Shown: positions 8,708 through 19,182, counted from the stretch's first letter. The stretch: DNA of 19,182 nt from a virus (IMGVR_UViG_2706794676_000003), one strand, 5' to 3'. Numbers and translations: made by a program. The notes: generated by a model not told the origin, from the sequence alone.

Positions 8708-9685
8708 GTGAGTTCAGGTGCAAAGGTTATCTCGGCATTTATCCGGGAGACGGTTGCAGGCACTACGCCAGCAAGTGGTGACTGGAGTTTATTAAAACGC
8801 ACAAGCTGGGGAGTAAAACCCACCNNNNNNNNNNNNNNNNNNNNNNNNNNNNNNNNNNNNNNNNNNNNNNNNNNNNNNNNNNNNNNNNNNNNNNNNNNNN
8901 NNNNNNNNNNNNNNNNNNNNNNNNNNNNNNNNNNNNNNNNNNNNNNNNNNNNNNNNNNNNNNNNNNNNNNNNNNNNNNNNNNNNNNNNNNNNNNNNNNNN
9001 NNNNNNNNNNNNNNNNNNNNNNNNNNNNNNNNNNNNNNNNNNNNNNNNNNNNNNNNNNNNNNNNNNNNNNNNNNNNNNNNNAGCGCAGGTTGGCTCATGG
9101 AAAATGCAGATCCCTAACGACGGCGATATTACAGCGACCGTAACCTTTGCCGGACTGGACTGGGAATCAAAGGCCGATGATACGAATTTTATCAAAGGCG
9201 AACCTGTGGATAGTGCAGGAAAGCTACGTTATTCGTTTAAGGAGGTTTCAGCAGTAAGCCTGAATGGTGTTGCCGGAGGTAACGGTTTTTGTATCGACAG
9301 TTTTGATATTCAGTTCGATAACAAACTCCAGACACAGCGTTGTATCGGGACTGGCTCGCCTTATGCAGGAGCAAATATTCCGACTACTTTTACACCGTCC
9401 GGTACGGTGACGCTTTCATGGTCTAAAGCCGCGTGGGAAATCTGGAGTAAAACACTGACTGGAGAAACAGTTCCGTTCAGCTTCACGCTTTCGAATGGAG
9501 AGGGGGCATACACTTTCAGTTTCCCGAAGGTTCAGGTGTCAGGTGAATGGCCTGATGGGGGTAATAGCGACATTATCCAGGTTCAATTGAGCATTACCGC
9601 AGCAGATGAAGCACCTACGATAACCAGAAAAAAAAATTCCCCGGCTGCCGTGATCGCAAAAGCCAGTGCTGAGGCGATTAGTTGA
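8708..9685 (+). CDS. major tail (tube) protein (spans masked block 8825-9081)
   Basis: GTG 8708 with a perfect AGGAGG 6 nt upstream; 325-aa ORF continuous in frame through the N-run; position between the tail terminator and the G/GT chaperone genes. Confidence 0.7.
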   Translation: MSSGAKVISAFIRETVAGTTPASGDWSLLKRTSWGVKPTXXXXXXXXXXXXXXXXXXXXXXXXXXXXXXXXXXXXXXXXXXXXXXXXXXXXXXXXXXXXXXXXXXXXXXXXXXXXXXXXXXXXXXAQVGSWKMQIPNDGDITATVTFAGLDWESKADDTNFIKGEPVDSAGKLRYSFKEVSAVSLNGVAGGNGFCIDSFDIQFDNKLQTQRCIGTGSPYAGANIPTTFTPSGTVTLSWSKAAWEIWSKTLTGETVPFSFTLSNGEGAYTFSFPKVQVSGEWPDGGNSDIIQVQLSITAADEAPTITRKKNSPAAVIAKASAEAIS

Positions 9686-9733
9686 TTTTCCGTTATTCCT
9701 CCTGTGGTACTGCCCTACAGGGGGACGCATTGA

Positions 9734-10195
9734 ATGAGGTTATGGATGTTTATTCTTAATCAGAAAATTATCATTGGTGGAGAACGCTGGTTTACGCCAA
9801 TGAAGGACTTAAAACCTGTAGACGGGTTAAAACTGTTGGTGGCAAGCAGCGATAACGATCAGTATCGCTCCCGTAATGCATTAATCCGTCGCCACATTGA
9901 GAAAATGGATGCCAGTTTGCACGTCGGAACGAAGGAGTTTGATATTTCAAAGGTTTCCGAGGTGGATTCTGTTGATGATTTACTCATTGATAATGCCGCT
10001 CGTTATCTGCTGAAAGACTGGAAAGGGGTTGGTGAACTGGTTAATGGTGTTGAGGTTGCACTGGAATATACGGCAGAACGAGGGATCGCGCTGCTTAAGC
10101 AGAATCCAGAGTTGTACTGGCAGATCCTTGCAGAAGCAGCCAGCATCGCCCAGGGTAAAGAGCAGCAGAAGCAGGATACGATAAAAAAGCCATAG
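9734..10195 (+). CDS. tail assembly chaperone (lambda G analogue)
   Basis: 153-aa ORF between the major tail and tape measure genes, ending 7 nt after a slippery heptamer; G-run SD at ~9720-9724. ATG 9800 is an alternative start. Confidence 0.7.
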   Translation: MRLWMFILNQKIIIGGERWFTPMKDLKPVDGLKLLVASSDNDQYRSRNALIRRHIEKMDASLHVGTKEFDISKVSEVDSVDDLLIDNAARYLLKDWKGVGELVNGVEVALEYTAERGIALLKQNPELYWQILAEAASIAQGKEQQKQDTIKKP

Positions 10196-10503
10196 CTGCC
10201 CAGCGGTGGTTATCGGAGTTCGGGGGAGAAAGGGGGGAAAAGGCAAGATGGAAGCGAGAAAAACTCAGGTTGCCACCGATACCGGAACCAGAAATAGACC
10301 CGGTGCTTAAGGAGTTGTTGTACGCCTATTCGGTAATATCCCGTGCCCGACGTTATGCTGGAATGGCTGGGGTGCCTTTGCCTTTATCTCTGACAGAGAT
10401 AAATGAATATTTAGCCACTCATCCGGTATTGATTGAGCGCGATGAATTTGAAGCAGTGATCTTTGCACTGGATGACCAGTATTTTCAGGAGCAGTGTGTG
10501 TAG
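9734..10503 (+). CDS. tail assembly chaperone GT fusion made by programmed -1 ribosomal frameshift at 10183-10189
   Basis: The -1 frame is open from 10159 to 10503 and overlaps the end of G; a slip at A_AAA_AAG places ribosomes in that frame (..QDTIKK-AIAAQRWLSEFGGERGEK...LPPIPEPEIDPVLKELL...FQEQCV). The stand-alone T ORF in the track has only a TTG start at 10270. Confidence 0.6.
10183..10189 (+). promoter_or_regulatory. slippery heptanucleotide A_AAA_AAG for -1 frameshifting (G to GT)
   Basis: Heptamer in the X_XXY_YYZ register of the G frame (codons AUA-AAA-AAG), identical in sequence to the E. coli dnaX shift site; located 4 nt before the G stop, as in the conserved G/GT arrangement of lambda-like tails. 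Confidence 0.6.
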
Positions 10504-10623
10504 TTGTTAATTACGTACACTCTGTTACAGAGATGTGATGGTGTCTTTAATTAAATCGATGATGCTCCTGGAGAAAAGCATTGCGTGGCCTCGTAATCGC
10601 TATATCTACTATTATGTCGCCTG

Positions 10624-10648
10624 AAACCCACTTCGCGGTGGGTTTTTT
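10624..10648 (+). terminator. rho-independent terminator-like hairpin immediately upstream of the tape measure gene
   Basis: AAACCCAC (10624-10631) / TTCGCG loop / GTGGGTTT (10638-10645), a perfect 8-bp stem running into a TTTTTT tract (10643-10648); 20 nt upstream of the tape measure start codon. Confidence 0.5.
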
Positions 10649-10668
10649 GTTGTCAGGAGTTTTAATAA

Positions 10669-13600
10669 ATGGCAGAGCAAACCTCGCGTCTCGCAATAAT
10701 TATTGATAGCACTGGAGCGAAAAATAATGCTGACAATCTGACCTCCTCATTAGTCAAAATGACGCAGGCTGGGGAAACTGCTGCAAATAGCGCAGGGAAA
10801 GTGACTAAGGCAACAGAAGATGAGAAGAACGCGCTCGCAAAATTAAAAGCAGCTATTGATCCAGTTGGTGCCGCAATTGATACTGTCGGTCGACGCTATT
10901 CTGAATTAAAGAAATTTTTCGATAAAGGGCTTATTGATAAAGAAGAATATGAATTTCTTGTCCGTAAACTTAATGAAACCACAGAGGAATTGAGCGGGGT
11001 TGCGCAAGCGCAGAGAGAAGCCGAGAAGGCCGGAAAACTTGCTGCCGCCCAGCAGGAAGCGCAGGCTCAGGCCTTTCAAAGAATGCTGGACAAGATCGAC
11101 CCTCTGGCTGCGGCGCTAAGAAATCTTGAACAACAGCATGATGAACTTAATGCTGCGTTTGCATCCGGGAAAATAAATGGTTCTCAGTTTGAGAATTATA
11201 GCCGAAAAATACAGGAAACACGGCGAGAGCTTACCGGAGAGGCTCAGGCAGAGCGAGAAGCAGCAAAAGCGCATGATGAACAGGTTGTTGCTTTGCAACG
11301 TCTGATTGCTCAACTTGATCCTGTCGGAACTGCTTTTAATCGTCTGGTAGAACAACAGAAACAGCTCAATGAAGCAAAAGCTAAGGGGATGCTTTCTCCT
11401 GAAATGTATGAGGAGCTTTCTGGAAAACTTCGTGCTATGCGGAGTGAGCTTGAGGTTACTCAATCACAATTAAGCAAAACCGGAATGTCGGCAAAACAAA
11501 CGGCTTTTGCTATGCGCATGTTGCCTGTACAAATGACGGATATTGTTGTTGGGTTGTCCACTGGTCAGTCGCCATTTATGGTGTTAATGCAGCAGGGCGG
11601 CCAGCTAAAAGATATGTTCGGTGGGATTGGCCCGGCGATCAAAGGTGTAGGTTCTTATGTGCTGGGATTAATTAATCCTTTTACCCTGGCCGCAGCAGCC
11701 GTTGGGGTCTTAGGACTGGCTTACTATAAAGGCTCTCAGGAGCAGGACGAATTTAATAAATCTCTTATTCTTACCGGAAATCAGTTGGGGACAACCAGCG
11801 GGCAATTGGGCGATATAGCTCAACGTGCCGGGAATGCGGCTGATTCGACAACTGGTGCTGCGGCGGCAGTATTAAATCAGCTTGTGCGTTCGGGAAAGGT
11901 AGCGAGCAGTTCGCTGGAGCAAGTGACGACAGCGATAGTAAAAACGAGCGAAGTAACAGGAATATCAACCGAACAACTGGTTAATGACTTCAATGAAATT
12001 GCAAAGGATCCTGTCAGTGCCATATCAAAACTTAATGATCAGTACCATTTTCTGACACTTGCGACTTATAACCAGATTAAGGCGCTACAGGATGAAGGGA
12101 ACCAGCAGGAGGCCGCCCGCATTGCGACAGAAGAATACTCATCCTCAATGATCCAGCGCACCAACCAGATTAAAGAAAATCTTGGTTATCTTGAGACTGC
12201 ATGGAAAGCTGTCGCAGACTCCGCAAAATGGGCATGGGATTCCATGCTGGATATTGGCCGTGAGGCCTCCCTTGATCAAAAAATCTCAGATGTTCTCCGT
12301 CAAATTGATGAAATAGAAAAAAATACCCGACCCGGAGTTTTCGGGTTAGGTGGCATTGGAGATGGCGGAGCTCAAAATAAAAGGCTGGCACGATTAAAGC
12401 AGCAATTGGGCGTACTTCAAGCAGAAAAAATTGCTCAGGACGTACTAAATTCATCAATAAACGATTACAACAAGCGACAACAGGAAGGAATTGAACTCAG
12501 ACAGAGAGCAGATGCCTTTTCAAAACAATATCAGACCCGGGAGCAGCAGAGAGCTAGTGAACTTGCAAAACTGGAAAAGCTAAAGAATCAGTATTCAAAG
12601 GAAGAATATAATAATCTTATCGCTCAAATAAATGAGCGTTATAAAGATCCAAAGCAACCAAAGGCGAAAGGTTATTCTGATGATGCAGCCCAACGAATGA
12701 TTGATCATCTGAATCAACAGAATGCGTTACTAAGTTCACAAGCTGAGTTGACCGTTAAATTAAGTTCCTCTGAACAGGAACTGGTTAAGTGGCGTCAGCG
12801 GATTGCCGACCTAGAGTCACGACCATCATCGAAATTAACCCAGGATCAGAAATCGCTTCTCTTACACCGGGAAGAAATAACCACGTTGATGGAGAAAAAT
12901 GTTGCGATTGAAAAAAATAACAGGCTAATCAAGGAATCCGCCGAAATAACAGCATGGCGTGATTCATTGCAGGCTTCGATTGATAATCGTCAGCAGGGGT
13001 ATGATATTCAGATTGCTGGTTATGGGGTTGGCGATAAAAATCAGCAACGCCAGCAGGAATTACTGCGGATTGAACATGGATATAACAATCAGCGTCTGCA
13101 ACTTGAACGTGACTATGCAGATAAATCCCGTGGAATGTCAGATCATGTTTTTCAAGAGAAAATGCAGGCTCTGAATGATGCTCTGGAACGGGAAAAAGAA
13201 ATTGTCAGACAGAAAAACGAGCAGCTCGATATTCAGGCAGGAGACTGGGTTAGTGGTGCCTCCCAGGGATTCAATAACTGGCTGGATGACACTAAGGATA
13301 TCAGTGAGCAGATAAAATCAACCACGACTCAGATGTTTGATGGGATGACCGATGCGCTGGGTGATTTTGTCACGACAGGCAAGGCAAATTTTCGTTCTTT
13401 CGCTACTTCCGTGATTTCGGATCTTAGTCGAATAGCATTAAAGGCTTCAATTACTGGGATTTTCGACAGCATTAGTAACAGTTCTTCTGGGGGGATTTTA
13501 GGAACTATCGGGAGTGCTATTAGTAAATTTATTCCGAATGCAAAGGGCGGTGTTTATGAGTCTCCGTCATTGAGCACGTATTCGAACGGTATTTATGATT

Positions 13601-13902
13601 CCCCGCAATTTTTTGCTTTTGCAAAAGGGGCTGGTGTTTTTGGTGAGGCTGGACCGGAAGCCATTATGCCATTAACACGAACTTCCGATGGTTCTCTTGG
13701 TGTCAGAGCTATTAATAGTAAAAGTGGTAATGGAGGCGGAGATATTACCTATGCCCCTGTATACCAAATCACTATTCAAAATGACGGCCAGAATGGAGAG
13801 ATTGGCCCTCAGGCAATAAAAGCACTTATGGGGATGGTTGATCAGCGGGTGCAGGGCAATCTGTTAAATATGCGACGTGATGGGGGAATGTTAAGTGGCT
13901 AA
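10669..13902 (+). CDS. tail length tape measure protein (lambda H homologue, 1077 aa)
   Basis: Long ORF with CAGGAG SD; contains a conserved core resembling lambda H ([38 protein letters not shown]) and a lambda H-like C-terminus (..[17 protein letters not shown]...[10 protein letters not shown]); lies between G/GT and M. Confidence 0.9.
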
Positions 13903-14233
13903 TACGGAAGAATTTCACTGGTTACCAGAGGATGGAATGAAAACAGAAAATAAACCATCGATAAAAACTGTAAGATTTGGTGATGGTTATGAGCAACGAA
14001 GTCCAAATGGACTTAATCATTCTCTGCGCGTTTTCACCTGTGATTTCAAAGTTGAGGCGAATGAACGTGATTCATTTGAAAAATTTTTAGCCCGGCATGA
14101 AGGCTATAAATCTTTTTTTTGGCGCCCGCCGGGTATTAACAGAAAAATCAGAGTGGTGTGTCGAACGTGGTCAGCGACAGAACATATCACCTATACCGAT
14201 TTTTCGTGTCAGTTTGACGAAGTGGTGATCTGA
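13895..14233 (+). CDS. M: minor tail protein M (divergent lambda M homologue)
   Basis: Contains the [16 protein letters not shown] motif of lambda M; homology to the lambda M N-terminus (F-x-W...GM) extends upstream of the internal ATG 13937, favouring GTG 13895 with GGGGGA SD 7 nt upstream; stop overlaps the L start (TGATG). Confidence 0.8.
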
Positions 14234-14931
14234 TGCAGGACATACAACAGGAAACGCTGAATGAATGCATTCGTGCGGAGCAGTCGGCCAGCGTGGTGCT
14301 CTGGGAAATCGACCTGACCGAGGTAGGCGGGGATCGCTACTTTTTCTGCAATGAGCAGAACGAGAAAGGAGAGTCTGTCACCTGGCAGAGTCGGCAGTAT
14401 CAGGCCTATCCCATTCAGGGGAGTGGATTTGAGATGAACGGCAAAGGTGCCAGTGCAAGGCCAACGCTGAAAGTCTCTAATCTGCACGGCATGGTCACCG
14501 GGATGGCGGAAGACCTGCAGAGTCTGGTCGGCGGAACGGTGGTCAGGCGTAAGGTTTACGCCCGTTTTCTGGATGCGGTGAACTTCGTCAACGGAAACAG
14601 TGACGCCGATCCGGAGCAGGAGGTGATCAGCCGCTGGCGTATTGAGCAGTGCAGCGAACTGAGCGCGGTCAGTGCCTCCTTTGTACTGTCCACGCCGACG
14701 GAAACGGACGGCGCTGTTTTTCCGGGGCGCATCATGCTTGCTAATACCTGCACCTGGACCTATCGCGGTGATGAGTGCGGTTATCACGGTCCGGCTGTCG
14801 CGGATGAATATGACCAGCNNNNNNNNNNNNNNNNNNNNNNNNNNNNNNNNNNNNNNNNNNNNNNNNNNNNNNNNNNNNNNNNNNNNNNNNNNNNNNNNNN
14901 NNNNNNNNNNNNNNNNNNNNNNNNNNNNNNN
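14233..14931 (+). CDS. L: minor tail protein L (3' end lies inside masked block 14819-15069; end inferred from a 232-aa lambda L)
   Basis: Translation [47 protein letters not shown]... matches lambda gpL almost residue for residue (from memory); the stop codon is hidden in the N-run. Confidence 0.85.
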
Positions 14932-15087
14932 NNNNNNNNNNNNNNNNNNNNNNNNNNNNNNNNNNNNNNNNNNNNNNNNNNNNNNNNNNNNNNNNNNNNN
15001 NNNNNNNNNNNNNNNNNNNNNNNNNNNNNNNNNNNNNNNNNNNNNNNNNNNNNNNNNNNNNNNNNNNNNCCGGAGGAGTATTTCCGG

Positions 15088-15687
15088 ATGGCTCCGGAGG
15101 ACTGGCTGCAGGCAGAGATGCAGGGTGAGATTGTGGCGCTGGTCCACAGCCACCCCGGTGGTCTGCCCTGGCTGAGTGAGGCCGACCGGCGGCTGCAGGT
15201 GCAGAGTGATTTGTCGTGGTGGCTGGTCTGCCGCGGGGCGATTCACAAGTTCCGCTGTGTGCCGCATCTCACCGGGCGGCGCTTTGAGCACGGGGTGACG
15301 GACTGTTACACGCTGTTCCGGGACGCTTACCATCTGGCGGGAATTGAGATGCCAGATTTTCATCGTGAGGACGACTGGTGGCGTAATGGTCAGAATCTCT
15401 ATCTGGATAATCTGGAGGCTACAGGGCTGTATCAGGTGCCGTTGTCAACGGCGCAGCCGGGCGATGTGCTGCTGTGCTGTTTTGGTTCATCGGTGCCGAA
15501 TCATGCCGCCATTTACTGTGGTGACGGCGAGCTGCTGCACCATATTCCTGAACAACTGAGCAAACGAGAGAGGTATACCGACAAATGGCAGCGACGCACA
15601 CACTCCCTCTGGCGTCACCGGGCATGGCACGCATCTGCCTTTACGGGGATTTGCAGCGATTTGGCCGCCGCATCGACCTTCGTGTGA
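15088..15687 (+). CDS. K: tail tip assembly protein K (JAMM/MPN plus NlpC/P60-like)
   Basis: ATG 15088 with GGAGGA SD gives a 199-aa product (MAPEDWLQAEMQGEIVALVHSHPGG...AASTFV), the same length and near-identical sequence as lambda gpK; HSHP motif visible; 3' end overlaps I by 103 nt as in lambda. Confidence 0.85.
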   Translation: MAPEDWLQAEMQGEIVALVHSHPGGLPWLSEADRRLQVQSDLSWWLVCRGAIHKFRCVPHLTGRRFEHGVTDCYTLFRDAYHLAGIEMPDFHREDDWWRNGQNLYLDNLEATGLYQVPLSTAQPGDVLLCCFGSSVPNHAAIYCGDGELLHHIPEQLSKRERYTDKWQRRTHSLWRHRAWHASAFTGICSDLAAASTFV

Positions 15688-16292: not shown

Positions 16293-19182
16293 ATGGGTAA
16301 AGGCAGCAGTAAGGGGCATACCCCGCGCGAAGCGAAGGACAACCTGAAGTCCACGCAGCTGCTGAGTGTGATCGATGCCATCAGTGAAGGGCCGGTTGAA
16401 GGTCCGGTGGATGGATTAAAAAGCGTGCTGCTGAACAGTACGCCGGTGCTGGACAATGAGGGGAATACCAACATCTCCGGCGTCACGGTGGTGTTCCGGG
16501 CAGGTGAGCAGGAGCAGTCACCGCCGGAGGGGTTTGAATCCTCCGGCTCCGAGACGGTGCTGGGTACGGAAGTGAAATATGACACGCCGATCACCCGGAC
16601 CATCACGTCGGCAAACATCGACCGTCTGCGCTTTACCTTCGGTGTACAGGCACTGGTGGAAACCACCTCAAAGGGAGACAGGAATCCGTCGGAAGTCCGC
16701 CTGCTGGTTCAGATACAGCGTAACGGTGGCTGGGTGACGGAAAAAGACATCACCATTAAGGGCAAAACCACCTCGCAGTATCTGGTCTCGGNNNNNNNNN
16801 NNNNNNNNNNNNNNNNNNNNNNNNNNNNNNNNNNNNNNNNNNNNNNNNNNNNNNNNNNNNNNNNNNNNNNNNNNNNNNNNNNNNNNNNNNNNNNNNNNNN
16901 NNNNNNNNNNNNNNNNNNNNNNNNNNNNNNNNNNNNNNNNNNNNNNNNNNNNNNNNNNNNNNNNNNNNNNNNNNNNNNNNNNNNNNNNNNNNNNNNNNNN
17001 NNNNNNNNNNNNNNNNNNNNNNNNNNNNNNNNNNNNNNNNNNNNNNNNNNNNNNNNNNNNATACAGCGGTATCTGGGACGGAACGTTAAAACCAGCATAC
17101 AGCAACAACATGGCCTGGTGTCTGTGGGATATGCTGACCCACCCGCGCTACGGCATGGGGAAACGTCTTGGTGCGGCGGATGTGGACAAATGGGCGCTGT
17201 ATGTCATCGGCCAGTACTGCGACCAGTCAGTGCCGGACGGCTTTGGCGGCACGGAGCCGCGCATCACCTGTAATGCGTACCTGACCACACAGCGCAAGGC
17301 GTGGGATGTGCTCAGTGATTTCTGCTCGGCGATGCGCTGTATGCCGGTATGGAACGGGCAGACGCTGACGTTCGTGCAGGACCGACCGTCGGATAAGGTG
17401 TGGACCTATAACCGCAGTAATGTGGTGATGCCGGATGATGGCGCGCCGTTCCGCTACAGCTTCAGCGCCCTGAAAGACCGCCATAATGCCGTTGAGGTGA
17501 ACTGGATTGACCCGGATAACGGCTGGGAGACGGCGACAGAGCTTGTGGAGGATACGCAGGCCATTGCCCGTTACGGTCGTAACGTCACGAAGATGGATGC
17601 TTTTGGCTGTACCAGCCGGGGGCAGGCACACCGCGCCGGGCTGTGGCTGATTAAAACAGAACTGCTGGAAACGCAGACCGTGGACTTCAGCGTGGGCGCA
17701 GAAGGGCTTCGCCATGTGCCGGGCGATGTCATTGAAATCTGTGATGATGACTATGCGGGTATCAGCATCGGCGGGCGCGTGCTGGCGGTAAACAGCCAGA
17801 CCCGGACGCTGACGCTCGACCGTGAAATCACGCTGCCATCCTCCGGTACCATGCTGATAAGCCTGGTTGACGGAAGTGGCAATCCGGTCAGCGTGGAGGT
17901 TCAGTCCGTCACCGACGGCGTGAAGGTGAAAGTGAGCCGTGTTCCTGACGGCGTTGCTGAATACAGCGTGTGGGGGCTGAAGCTGCCGACGTTGCGCCAG
18001 CGCCTGTTCCGCTGTGNNNNNNNNNNNNNNNNNNNNNNNNNNNNNNNNNNNNNNNNNNNNNNNNNNNNNNNNNNNNNNNNNNNNNNNNNNNNGCTGACAG
18101 TCCGGGCGGTAAATGCCTGGGGACAGCAGGGCGATCCGGCGTCGGTATCGTTCAGGATTGCCGCACCGGTAGCACCGTCGCGGATTGAGCTGACGCCGGG
18201 CTATTTTCAGATAACTGCCACGCCGCATCTTGCGGTTTATGATCCGACGGTACAGTTTGAGTTCTGGTTCTCGGAAACGCGGATTACCGATATCAGGCAG
18301 GTTGAAACCACAGCCCGCTACCTTGGCGCGGGGCTGTACTGGATAGCCGCCAGTATCAATATCAAACCGGGCCATGATTATTACTTTTATATCCGCAGTG
18401 TGAACACCGTTGGCAAATCGGCATTCGTGGAGGCCGTCGGTCGGGCGAGCGATGATGCGGAAGGTTACCTGGATTTTTTCAAAGGCAAGATAACCGAATC
18501 CCATCTCGGTAAAGAGCTGCTGGAAAAAGTTGATCTGACGGAGGATAACGCCAGCAGACTGGATGAGTTTTCGAAAGAGTGGAAGGACGCTAACGATAAA
18601 TGGAATGCGATGTGGGGCGTCAAAATTGAGCAGACCAAAGACGGCAAACATTATGTCGCGGGTATTGGCCTCAGCATGGAGGACACGGAGGAAGGCAAGC
18701 TGAGCCAGTTTCTGGTTGCCGCCAATCGTATCGCGTTTATTGACCCGGCAAACGGGAATGAAACGCCGATGTTTGTGGCGCAGGGCAACCAGATATTCAT
18801 GAACGACGTGTTCCTGAAGCGCCTGACAGCCCCCGCCATTACCAGCGGTGGCAGTCCTCCGGTATTTTCCCTGACATCAGACGGAAAGCTGACCGCTAAA
18901 AATGCGGATATCAGTGGTAGTGTGAATGCGAACTCAGGAACGCTCAACAATGTCACGATTAACCAGAACTGTACGATTAAGGGCATGCTGGAGGCGACCC
19001 AGGTCAGAGGGGATTTCGTTAAAGCTGTATCAAAAGCCTTCCCGAAAAAAGTCGGTACGTGGGGTAACACGGAAACACCAGACGGTACGGTTACAGTCAC
19101 CATCAGCGATGATCATAACTTTGACCGCCAGATTATTATTCCGCCCATTATTTTTAACGGTATAGCGTATGACGATCCGGGG
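16293..19182 (+). CDS. J: tail tip / central tail fibre protein J (host specificity protein), 5' ~960 codons; runs off the window end; interrupted by masked blocks 16792-17060 and 18017-18092
   Basis: Starts [34 protein letters not shown]... as lambda gpJ; after the first N-run the J sequence continues in frame 1 ([44 protein letters not shown]...) and stays open to the end of the window. Not a single entry in the ORF track because no stop codon is present and the frame changes across the first N-run. Confidence 0.9.

Follow-up and report, generated by a model that had tools for sequence, protein, structure and literature searches.

A probable lambda-type G/GT tail assembly chaperone pair, with a candidate -1 frameshift site, in the phage gene family annotated as YdaY

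Known G/GT systems and the layout of the locus

In phage lambda the adjacent tail genes G and T give a short product, gpG, and a fusion, gpGT, which are tail assembly chaperones, reportedly as set out by Levin, Hendrix and Casjens in 1993 and by Xu, Hendrix and Duda in 2004, 2013 and 2014 (cited in PMC5009743). When the lambda layout is re-derived, G comes to 140 amino acids (aa), the slippery heptamer G_GGA_AAG lies 15 nucleotides (nt) before the G stop, the two reading frames overlap by 64 nt, and the T part comes to 144 aa. The subject of this report is the interval 9746-10503 of the viral sequence IMGVR_UViG_2706794676_000003, which we read as a lambda-type G/GT pair with a -1 frameshift at A_AAA_AAG, at a probability of roughly 0.9. 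The whole stretch of 19,182 nt that was analyzed is referred to as the window, and the features of the G/T locus given below by their coordinates are on its plus strand. A preliminary description of the window had already proposed a lambda-type pair, and the proposal holds up on the grounds of a position between the tube and tape measure genes, a -1 open reading frame (ORF) without a conserved start, a heptamer that is in register, and conservation in relatives.

The likeness to lambda takes in the order of the genes (tube, G, T, tape measure gene), the placing of T in the -1 frame with no start of its own, a heptamer that ends in A_AAG and lies in register close to the 3' end of G, and the lack of any evident RNA stimulator. 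The sizes are also near those of lambda, with G at 149 aa, the heptamer 3 nt before the G stop, an overlap of 37 nt between G and the -1 ORF, and a T part of 104 aa, which is shorter than lambda's. Several lineages of the window's family carry lambda's exact G_GGA_AAG at the homologous column. What differs is the window's own heptamer, A_AAA_AAG, the absence of detectable similarity to gpG or gpT, and the sequence that follows T: in lambda T overlaps H, whereas in the window a spacer of 165 nt, with a small ORF and a terminator-like hairpin in it, separates T from the tape measure gene. The resemblance to lambda gpG and gpT is one of architecture and probably of fold class, not of sequence.

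Another close known system is the HK97 tail assembly chaperone (PDB 2ob9), which is the best structural match of the predicted G model; the "spiral" fold of tail assembly chaperones (TACs) is said to have been described by Pell et al. in 2013 (cited in PMC5313236). A true homolog is already annotated as a tail assembly chaperone pair in Acinetobacter phage vB_AbaS_TRS1 (TRS1_18/TRS1_19, NC_031098), where the RefSeq record gives the fusion as a coding sequence (CDS) joined from two pieces. The T part of TRS1 is 38.8% identical and the TRS1 fusion can be aligned over its full length across the same junction column, but the G halves are very divergent (21% identity) and the TRS1 heptamer is G_GGA_AAG, placed 78 nt before the G stop.

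The frameshift in Escherichia coli dnaX needs two stimulators, a Shine-Dalgarno-like element upstream and a stem-loop downstream, and the shifted ribosome meets a stop almost at once. That tau/gamma cassette has the same A_AAA_AAG as the window, and the same basis in tRNA-Lys and the AAG codon (PMC5009743). The window site is unlike it in having neither a conserved AGGA nor a conserved downstream structure, and in that its shift opens a 104-codon extension. The preliminary description had set the window's heptamer apart as the dnaX type instead of lambda's; the heptamer is indeed A_AAA_AAG, but the contrast was overdrawn, with sister lineages carrying G_GGA_AAG in exactly that place and no dnaX stimulators at the site.

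By standard decoding the G ORF runs from 9746 to 10195 and belongs to the tail assembly chaperones, under the RefSeq name YdaY. An alternative in-frame ATG at 9734 would prepend MRLW, and G had earlier been taken to begin there. The ATG at 9746 is the more likely start, because a Shine-Dalgarno-like GAGG, as read from the sequence, lies at 9736-9739, 6 nt to the 5' side of it, because the deposited annotation begins there, and because the N-termini of the homologs align there. The zero-frame codons at the site are ATA AAA AAG CCA TAG, with AAA at 10184 and AAG at 10187, which places the heptamer A_AAA_AAG at 10183-10189 (followed by CC) in the X_XXY_YYZ register, with AAA as the P-site and AAG as the A-site codon, as had been claimed. 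The TAG stop of G at 10193-10195 follows one codon (CCA) past the heptamer, a distance of 3 nt where 4 nt had been counted before. The -1 frame is open from 10159, directly behind a TAA at 10156-10158 that sets the 5' limit of the region in which a shift is possible, to the TAG at 10501-10503, and here too the earlier account was correct.

After a -1 slip the next codon would be GCC at 10189. The T segment, 104 codons in the -1 frame over 10189-10503 (AIAAQRWLSEFGG...QEQCV), would then be joined to G codons 1-148 in a predicted GT fusion of 252 aa. Across the junction the predicted product reads ...QDTIKK/AIAAQRWLSEFGG..., in agreement with the junction peptide DTIKK/AIAAQRW of the preliminary description, and the predicted stretches QDTIKKAIAAQR and QDTIKKAIAAQRWLSE span the junction. 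The window is 100% identical to Salmonella phage SPF_0923 (ON032529) over 9600-10700 and 93-99.9% identical elsewhere. It has five masked runs of N (76-269 nt), at 2799-3064, 8825-9081, 14819-15069, 16792-17060 and 18017-18092, none of which touches the G/T site; these runs yield artificial long ORFs, for example 14233-15687, and false matches in scans for homopolymers and heptamers.

The junction in relatives and the alternatives

Relatives were collected by tblastn with the predicted fusion and by scans of genome and viral contig collections. This gave 106 loci in all, 98 of them newly fetched, from phages of Enterobacterales, Pseudomonas and Acinetobacter, three bacterial orders; at the junction they have 38 unique sequences. 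The tblastn relatives, each found as two pieces, are from Klebsiella (65% identity), a bat-faeces siphovirus, Erwinia phage Gungnir39 (55%), the Pseudomonas syringae phages phiPSA1, Aurca01 and Cruim01 (32%), and the Acinetobacter phages TCUAN1 and TRS1. The added 98 include Shigella, Citrobacter, Raoultella, Siccibacter, Pectobacterium, Serratia, Pantoea and Tatumella, and 95 of them have T in the -1 frame; the three exceptions to the frame offset have an N or a homopolymer indel elsewhere, with their heptamers intact. The deduced fusion proteins of ten phages align unbroken through one junction column. Two indel variants have kept the heptamer. One (L029) has lost a G from a G6 run 40 nt downstream of it, and the other (P0001) is carried into the -1 frame by a deletion, 5 codons ahead of the heptamer, with a 240-aa single-frame G-T fusion as the outcome. 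Each may be either a sequencing error or a decaying prophage. P0001 covers the full fusion and was considered as an annotated frameshift product, but it was rejected as a deletion variant.

At the junction column the site is A_AAA_AAG at 92 loci. Lambda's heptamer, G_GGA_AAG, is there at 6 loci and in the Acinetobacter phages, G_GAA_AAG at 3 (the Pseudomonas phages), C_GCA_AAG followed directly by TAA at 1 (Erwinia phage Gungnir39), and G_GGG_AAG at 1 (a Pectobacterium prophage). The swap between A_AAA_AAG and G_GGA_AAG exchanges Lys-Lys for Gly-Lys, so the protein is altered while a top-ranked slippery heptamer is kept. Loss of the heptamer from relatives whose frames are still separate, which the preliminary description had seen as contrary to its proposal, was checked and does not refute it, as a canonical heptamer is at the same column in 98 of the 106 loci, and the 5 with a noncanonical site (G_GAA_AAG, C_GCA_AAG plus stop, or G_GGG_AAG) still have the A-site AAG there. 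The phiPSA1-group phages (L005-L007) also have a GGGAAAG about 20 nt downstream of the junction, which was considered as a lambda-type site and rejected because its register is GGG_AAA_G, wrong for -1. The homologous junction in this group is the upstream G_GAA_AAG, and an AAAAAAG in the wrong register is also found upstream, so that automated frameshift finders could easily pick the wrong site at these loci.

The stop of G comes 0, 3, 21, 75 or 105 nt past the slip site depending on the lineage. Since this stop floats while the slip site stays in its column, it is the position of the site that is kept, and not that of the stop. In TCUAN1 no more than four codons of open -1 frame precede the junction, and three lineages (L004, L025, L026) have the G stop immediately behind AAG; taken together, these limits narrow the family-wide region of the shift to about 13 nt containing the heptamer. 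Lysine codons were counted in 47 unique enterobacterial sequences. Of the two lysines in the heptamer, K147 is AAA in 40 and AAG in none, and K148 is AAA in none and AAG in 47. The corresponding counts of AAA and AAG are 16 and 28 at K118, 42 and 5 at K138, and 3 and 37 at K142, with an overall usage in G of 63% AAA. By these codon counts and alignments, the slip site and the two-frame arrangement are conserved to a degree that the protein sequence does not call for.

The alternative that survives best, itself very improbable, is that T is translated independently from an internal start and that the heptamer is incidental. The best start would be the TTG at 10318, which has AAGGAG 3 nt upstream of it, with GTG 10303 and ATG 10363 as further candidates, and ORFs of this kind have in fact been deposited, as 10318-10503 in SPF_0923 and as the equivalent of 10303 in E. 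coli phages and RefSeq. What this leaves out is the stretch of 43 codons after the junction, which precedes 10318, and indeed every annotated T start, in the -1 frame and is under coding selection in that frame. Substitutions there at -1 frame positions 1/2/3 number 11/10/25 for the window versus Klebsiella, 11/9/27 for the window versus the bat-faeces phage, 8/6/26 for the window versus Erwinia, and 3/5/20 for Klebsiella versus the bat-faeces phage. The third-position excess in the four comparisons has p from 0.01 to 1e-4, and the pattern is the same as in the G control. T residues A4, Q5, W7 and G13, which follow the junction, are invariant.

The candidate starts, on the other side, are unconserved in both position and kind. 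The preliminary description had said that T has no credible start, only a TTG at 10270; it is right that no start is conserved, but GTG 10303, TTG 10315, TTG 10318 and ATG 10363 are also present in the -1 frame. These candidates vary between genera, with the TTG missing from Klebsiella and Erwinia, and in the Acinetobacter phages there is no ATG, GTG or TTG within 60 T codons. Gene calls for T in the databases start at nine alignment columns and give products of 60 to 138 aa. An independent start also leaves the fixed synonymous choice of AAA and AAG in the heptamer unexplained. Given coding constraint right after the junction and no conserved start, the simplest route into T is entry from G.

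Slightly less probable again is transcriptional slippage, by which RNA polymerase would stutter on the A6 run, making mRNA with one A fewer or two more, and standard decoding of that mRNA would give GT. The site does consist of a homopolymeric A6 run. Efficient transcriptional slippage takes runs of about 8-9 or more, and six A's are short for it. Slippage of this kind on a run of A or T is a known alternative route to such fusions (PMC5009743). In the sister lineages with GGGAAAG, GGAAAAG or CGCAAAG at the column, the 3-4 A's cannot support stutter and yet the A-site AAG is kept; the invariant G after the A run is, moreover, a feature that matters for slippage of tRNA-Lys and not for stutter by the polymerase.

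Least probable is that there is no recoding, the offset being a decay mutation in a defective prophage, or G terminating at its TAG with reinitiation behind it, and the heptamer being there by chance: many copies are in prophages, including the clearly defective K-12 Rac with its 5'-truncated G, indel variants such as L029 and P0001 exist, and the motif count is at chance level, but isolated viable phages infecting four host genera (SPF_0923, Gungnir39, phiPSA1/Aurca01/Cruim01, TRS1/TCUAN1) all have this -1 offset, as do 95 of the 98 surveyed loci, a decay indel is not expected to be identical across Enterobacterales, Pseudomonas and Acinetobacter, and termination with reinitiation is contradicted by the floating G stop (0-105 nt) together with the absence of nearby starts.

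Several points do weigh against a G/GT frameshift at this locus. Many of the 106 loci are close relatives, so that the counts overstate the independent observations, with 38 unique junctions among them. Five relatives are without a canonical heptamer, and would slip on the AAG codon alone or use another arrangement. The motif AAAAAAG is not enriched in the window, with 6 copies versus 4.9 expected. Alignment by hhalign to lambda G and T gave probabilities of 0.1% and 0.3%, which is no sequence homology. The AAGGAG before TTG 10318 may give a minor independent product of 61 aa. A literature search on the G/T family found no proteomics, reporter or genetic data on the fusion.

For the plus-strand genes of the window, in-register X_XXY_YYZ heptamers are at 21 of 4038 codon positions, and the chance of any such heptamer within the 37-nt overlap is roughly 5%; the efficient ones, ending in A_AAG, are at 2 of 4038. 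Since the motif count is near chance, motif enrichment was dropped as evidence and the significance of the site rests on its context and on the comparative data. Elsewhere in the window, G_GGG_GGA at 7519-7525 (plus strand) was tried as a frameshift site, as it is in register directly before the stop of the ORF at 7133-7528 and the -1 frame there is open for 128 codons. It was rejected: what stays open in -1 is the following gene (7528-7911), whose own ATG overlaps the stop, and the G run is most simply the Shine-Dalgarno of this gene.

Proposed mechanism and the noncanonical sites

A hairpin at 10190-10216 of the window abuts the heptamer, with a spacer of 0 nt, and its stability does not exceed that of shuffled sequence (z = +1.0). 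Folding of an alignment of 21 diverse junctions gave -0.84 kcal/mol, with no covarying pairs and no conserved structure. An apparent pairing of AGCC with GGCU was considered as a stimulator and rejected, being explained by conserved Ala and Trp-Leu codons. On the upstream side, the Shine-Dalgarno-like AGGA found 6 nt before the heptamer is not conserved among relatives. An Rfam scan of 9500-10800 returned only a sub-threshold, terminator-like match to sroH. Judged by these comparisons, the site is stimulator-free and of the lambda kind, not a dnaX-like cassette.

In what follows we infer the occurrence of slippage, its efficiency, and the binding partners of the products. Most ribosomes would decode 9746-10195 normally and release the chaperone G of 149 aa. 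A smaller share, which from the lambda case is probably a few percent, would slip back by one nt when two lysine tRNAs occupy AAA in the P site and AAG in the A site, and both tRNAs would re-pair on AAA AAA. Decoding would resume at GCC 10189 in the -1 frame and go on to 10503, giving the 252-aa GT (...DTIKK-AIAAQRW...). An RNA stimulator is apparently not needed for this, and slippage would be driven by the only tRNA-Lys of E. coli, whose pairing with AAG is weak and which re-pairs on AAA (PMC5009743). For lambda, the ratio of G to GT is about 30:1, and the roles of the G and T parts have been described (PMC5009743). If the analogy carries over, G and the G part of GT would coat the tape measure protein, whose gene comes next downstream, the T part would recruit the tube protein, whose gene comes directly upstream, and neither G nor GT would be in the virion.

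In all lineages but that of a single Pectobacterium prophage, the base before the AAG of the slip site is A. In the G_GAA_AAG of phiPSA1, Aurca01 and Cruim01 and the C_GCA_AAG of Gungnir39, all viable phages, the P-site tRNA cannot re-pair after a -1 shift. As a tentative suggestion, toward which we are almost evenly divided and lean slightly away, the invariant element may be the A-site AAG and not the full heptamer, and the sites may form a series of graded efficiency if the noncanonical ones still deliver GT. Possibly the noncanonical sites are less efficient slip sites working on AAG alone, or, for the Pectobacterium prophage, a product of decay.

Family assignment, neighboring genes and annotation

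G matches PHROG 313, "tail assembly chaperone", at E = 4.9e-46, with G residues 3-149 on profile positions 15-149 of 258, and the T peptide has a weak match to positions 173-246 in the C-terminal half of the same profile. Coverage of PHROG 313 by G plus T suggests that there are full-length fusions among the profile's members. T also matches PHROG 1189 (function not known) at E = 1.4e-36, and Pfam PF23812 Phage_TAC_18 below the cutoff, at E = 4.7e-4 and 20.7 bits versus a cutoff of 27. PF27119.1, as precomputed in the protein database, is found on all G homologs; a Pfam search of G gave no match at E<=1, and Pfam gave no match of G or T to the lambda G or T families. Searches of PDB sequences and NCBIfam with G and T gave no matches.

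The predicted T model has a predicted local distance difference test (pLDDT) score of 80.9 and found no informative match among PDB structures. When Foldseek was run with this model against viral predicted structures, the best named matches were all chaperones, with probabilities near 1 and E-values of 4e-3 or weaker. These are the CcrColossus "pre-tape measure chaperone", the Loki tail assembly chaperone, and the tape measure chaperones of Sansa and T1-like phages. The Loki tail assembly chaperone is a proposed frameshift fusion (PMC5313236).

The G/T pair lies between the tube and tape measure genes, which is the canonical position. Upstream there are encoded a tail completion protein at 7912-8292 (PHROG 169), a tail terminator at 8289-8681 (PF13554, PHROG 179), and the tail tube (major tail) protein at 8708-9685 on the plus strand, which matches PF18906 Phage_tube_2 at E = 1.6e-14 and is named "phage tail tube protein" in RefSeq relatives. 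The deposited start of the tube gene corresponds to window position 8723, and the masked N run at 8825-9081 is inside the gene. Downstream is the gene for the 1077-aa tail tape measure protein, at 10669-13902 on the plus strand, with Pfam matches to TMP_2 (E = 3.9e-81) and Tape_meas_lam_C (E = 3.9e-26). The 3' end of the tube gene has an A9 run at 9627-9635 (plus strand), 48 nt before the stop. Each of the other two frames meets a stop ahead of the normal one, which rules out an extended product, and the run could cause transcriptional or translational heterogeneity at the C-terminus of the tube protein.

The spacer of 165 nt from the T stop to the tape measure start holds a 28-aa ORF (MVSLIKSMMLLEKSIAWPRNRYIYYYVA) at window 10538-10650 on the plus strand, which ends at a strong terminator-like hairpin (10623-10646) with a T run after it. 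Of the 106 relatives, 44 have ORF and hairpin together; K-12 Rac is one of them, with neither annotated. The Klebsiella, Erwinia and Pseudomonas relatives lack both and have other small genes at the same place. The spacer before the tape measure gene has the look of an insertion site of the moron type. Searches of Rfam and of the literature for the 28-aa ORF and hairpin found nothing.

In the databases, SPF_0923 and the vB_EcoS phages are annotated with two separate hypothetical ORFs at this locus. For intact prophages RefSeq gives G as a 119-aa "YdaY" that begins at an internal TTG (window 9836; 1637-1996 in L110 and 2493-2852 in L109). This start copies the gene model of the 5'-truncated remnant in K-12 Rac, where ydaY abuts ynaK, and the full-length G has 149 aa. 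In the Rac prophage of K-12 MG1655 the truncated ydaY stands behind ynaK, and both the heptamer and the complete T frame, unannotated there, match the window at 100% identity. Chimeric proteins in the databases, for example P0040 with a ParB N-terminus and a YdaY C-terminus, reflect the same K-12 deletion junction. RefSeq leaves T unannotated or "hypothetical" and has no fusion CDS in the enterobacterial branch. The locus is present in 1,073 of 5,426 complete E. coli genomes (about 20%), with G named "YdaY" or "hypothetical". A literature search found no paper tying ydaY to frameshifting, the table of Xu et al. 2004 being outside that search. The G/GT mechanism itself is textbook material, and the joined CDS of TRS1 was already known; it is the enterobacterial branch of the family that is unannotated.

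The main value of these findings is thus a correction of annotation. ydaY gains a function, as the remnant of a tail assembly chaperone, and recognition of G/GT adds a missing predicted protein of 252 aa to the proteomes of these phages. The conserved G/GT frameshift gains one more well-supported family, with an unusually clean comparative signal, and the understanding of its mechanism is unchanged. The five noncanonical sites are the sole part of the locus that might teach something new. If slippage does depend on the A-site AAG alone, tail chaperone frameshifting in Gammaproteobacteria could run on the slippage of a single tRNA-Lys, with the stop codon helping in Gungnir39, and the family would be a natural series of slip sites, graded in efficiency and set in an otherwise alignable context.

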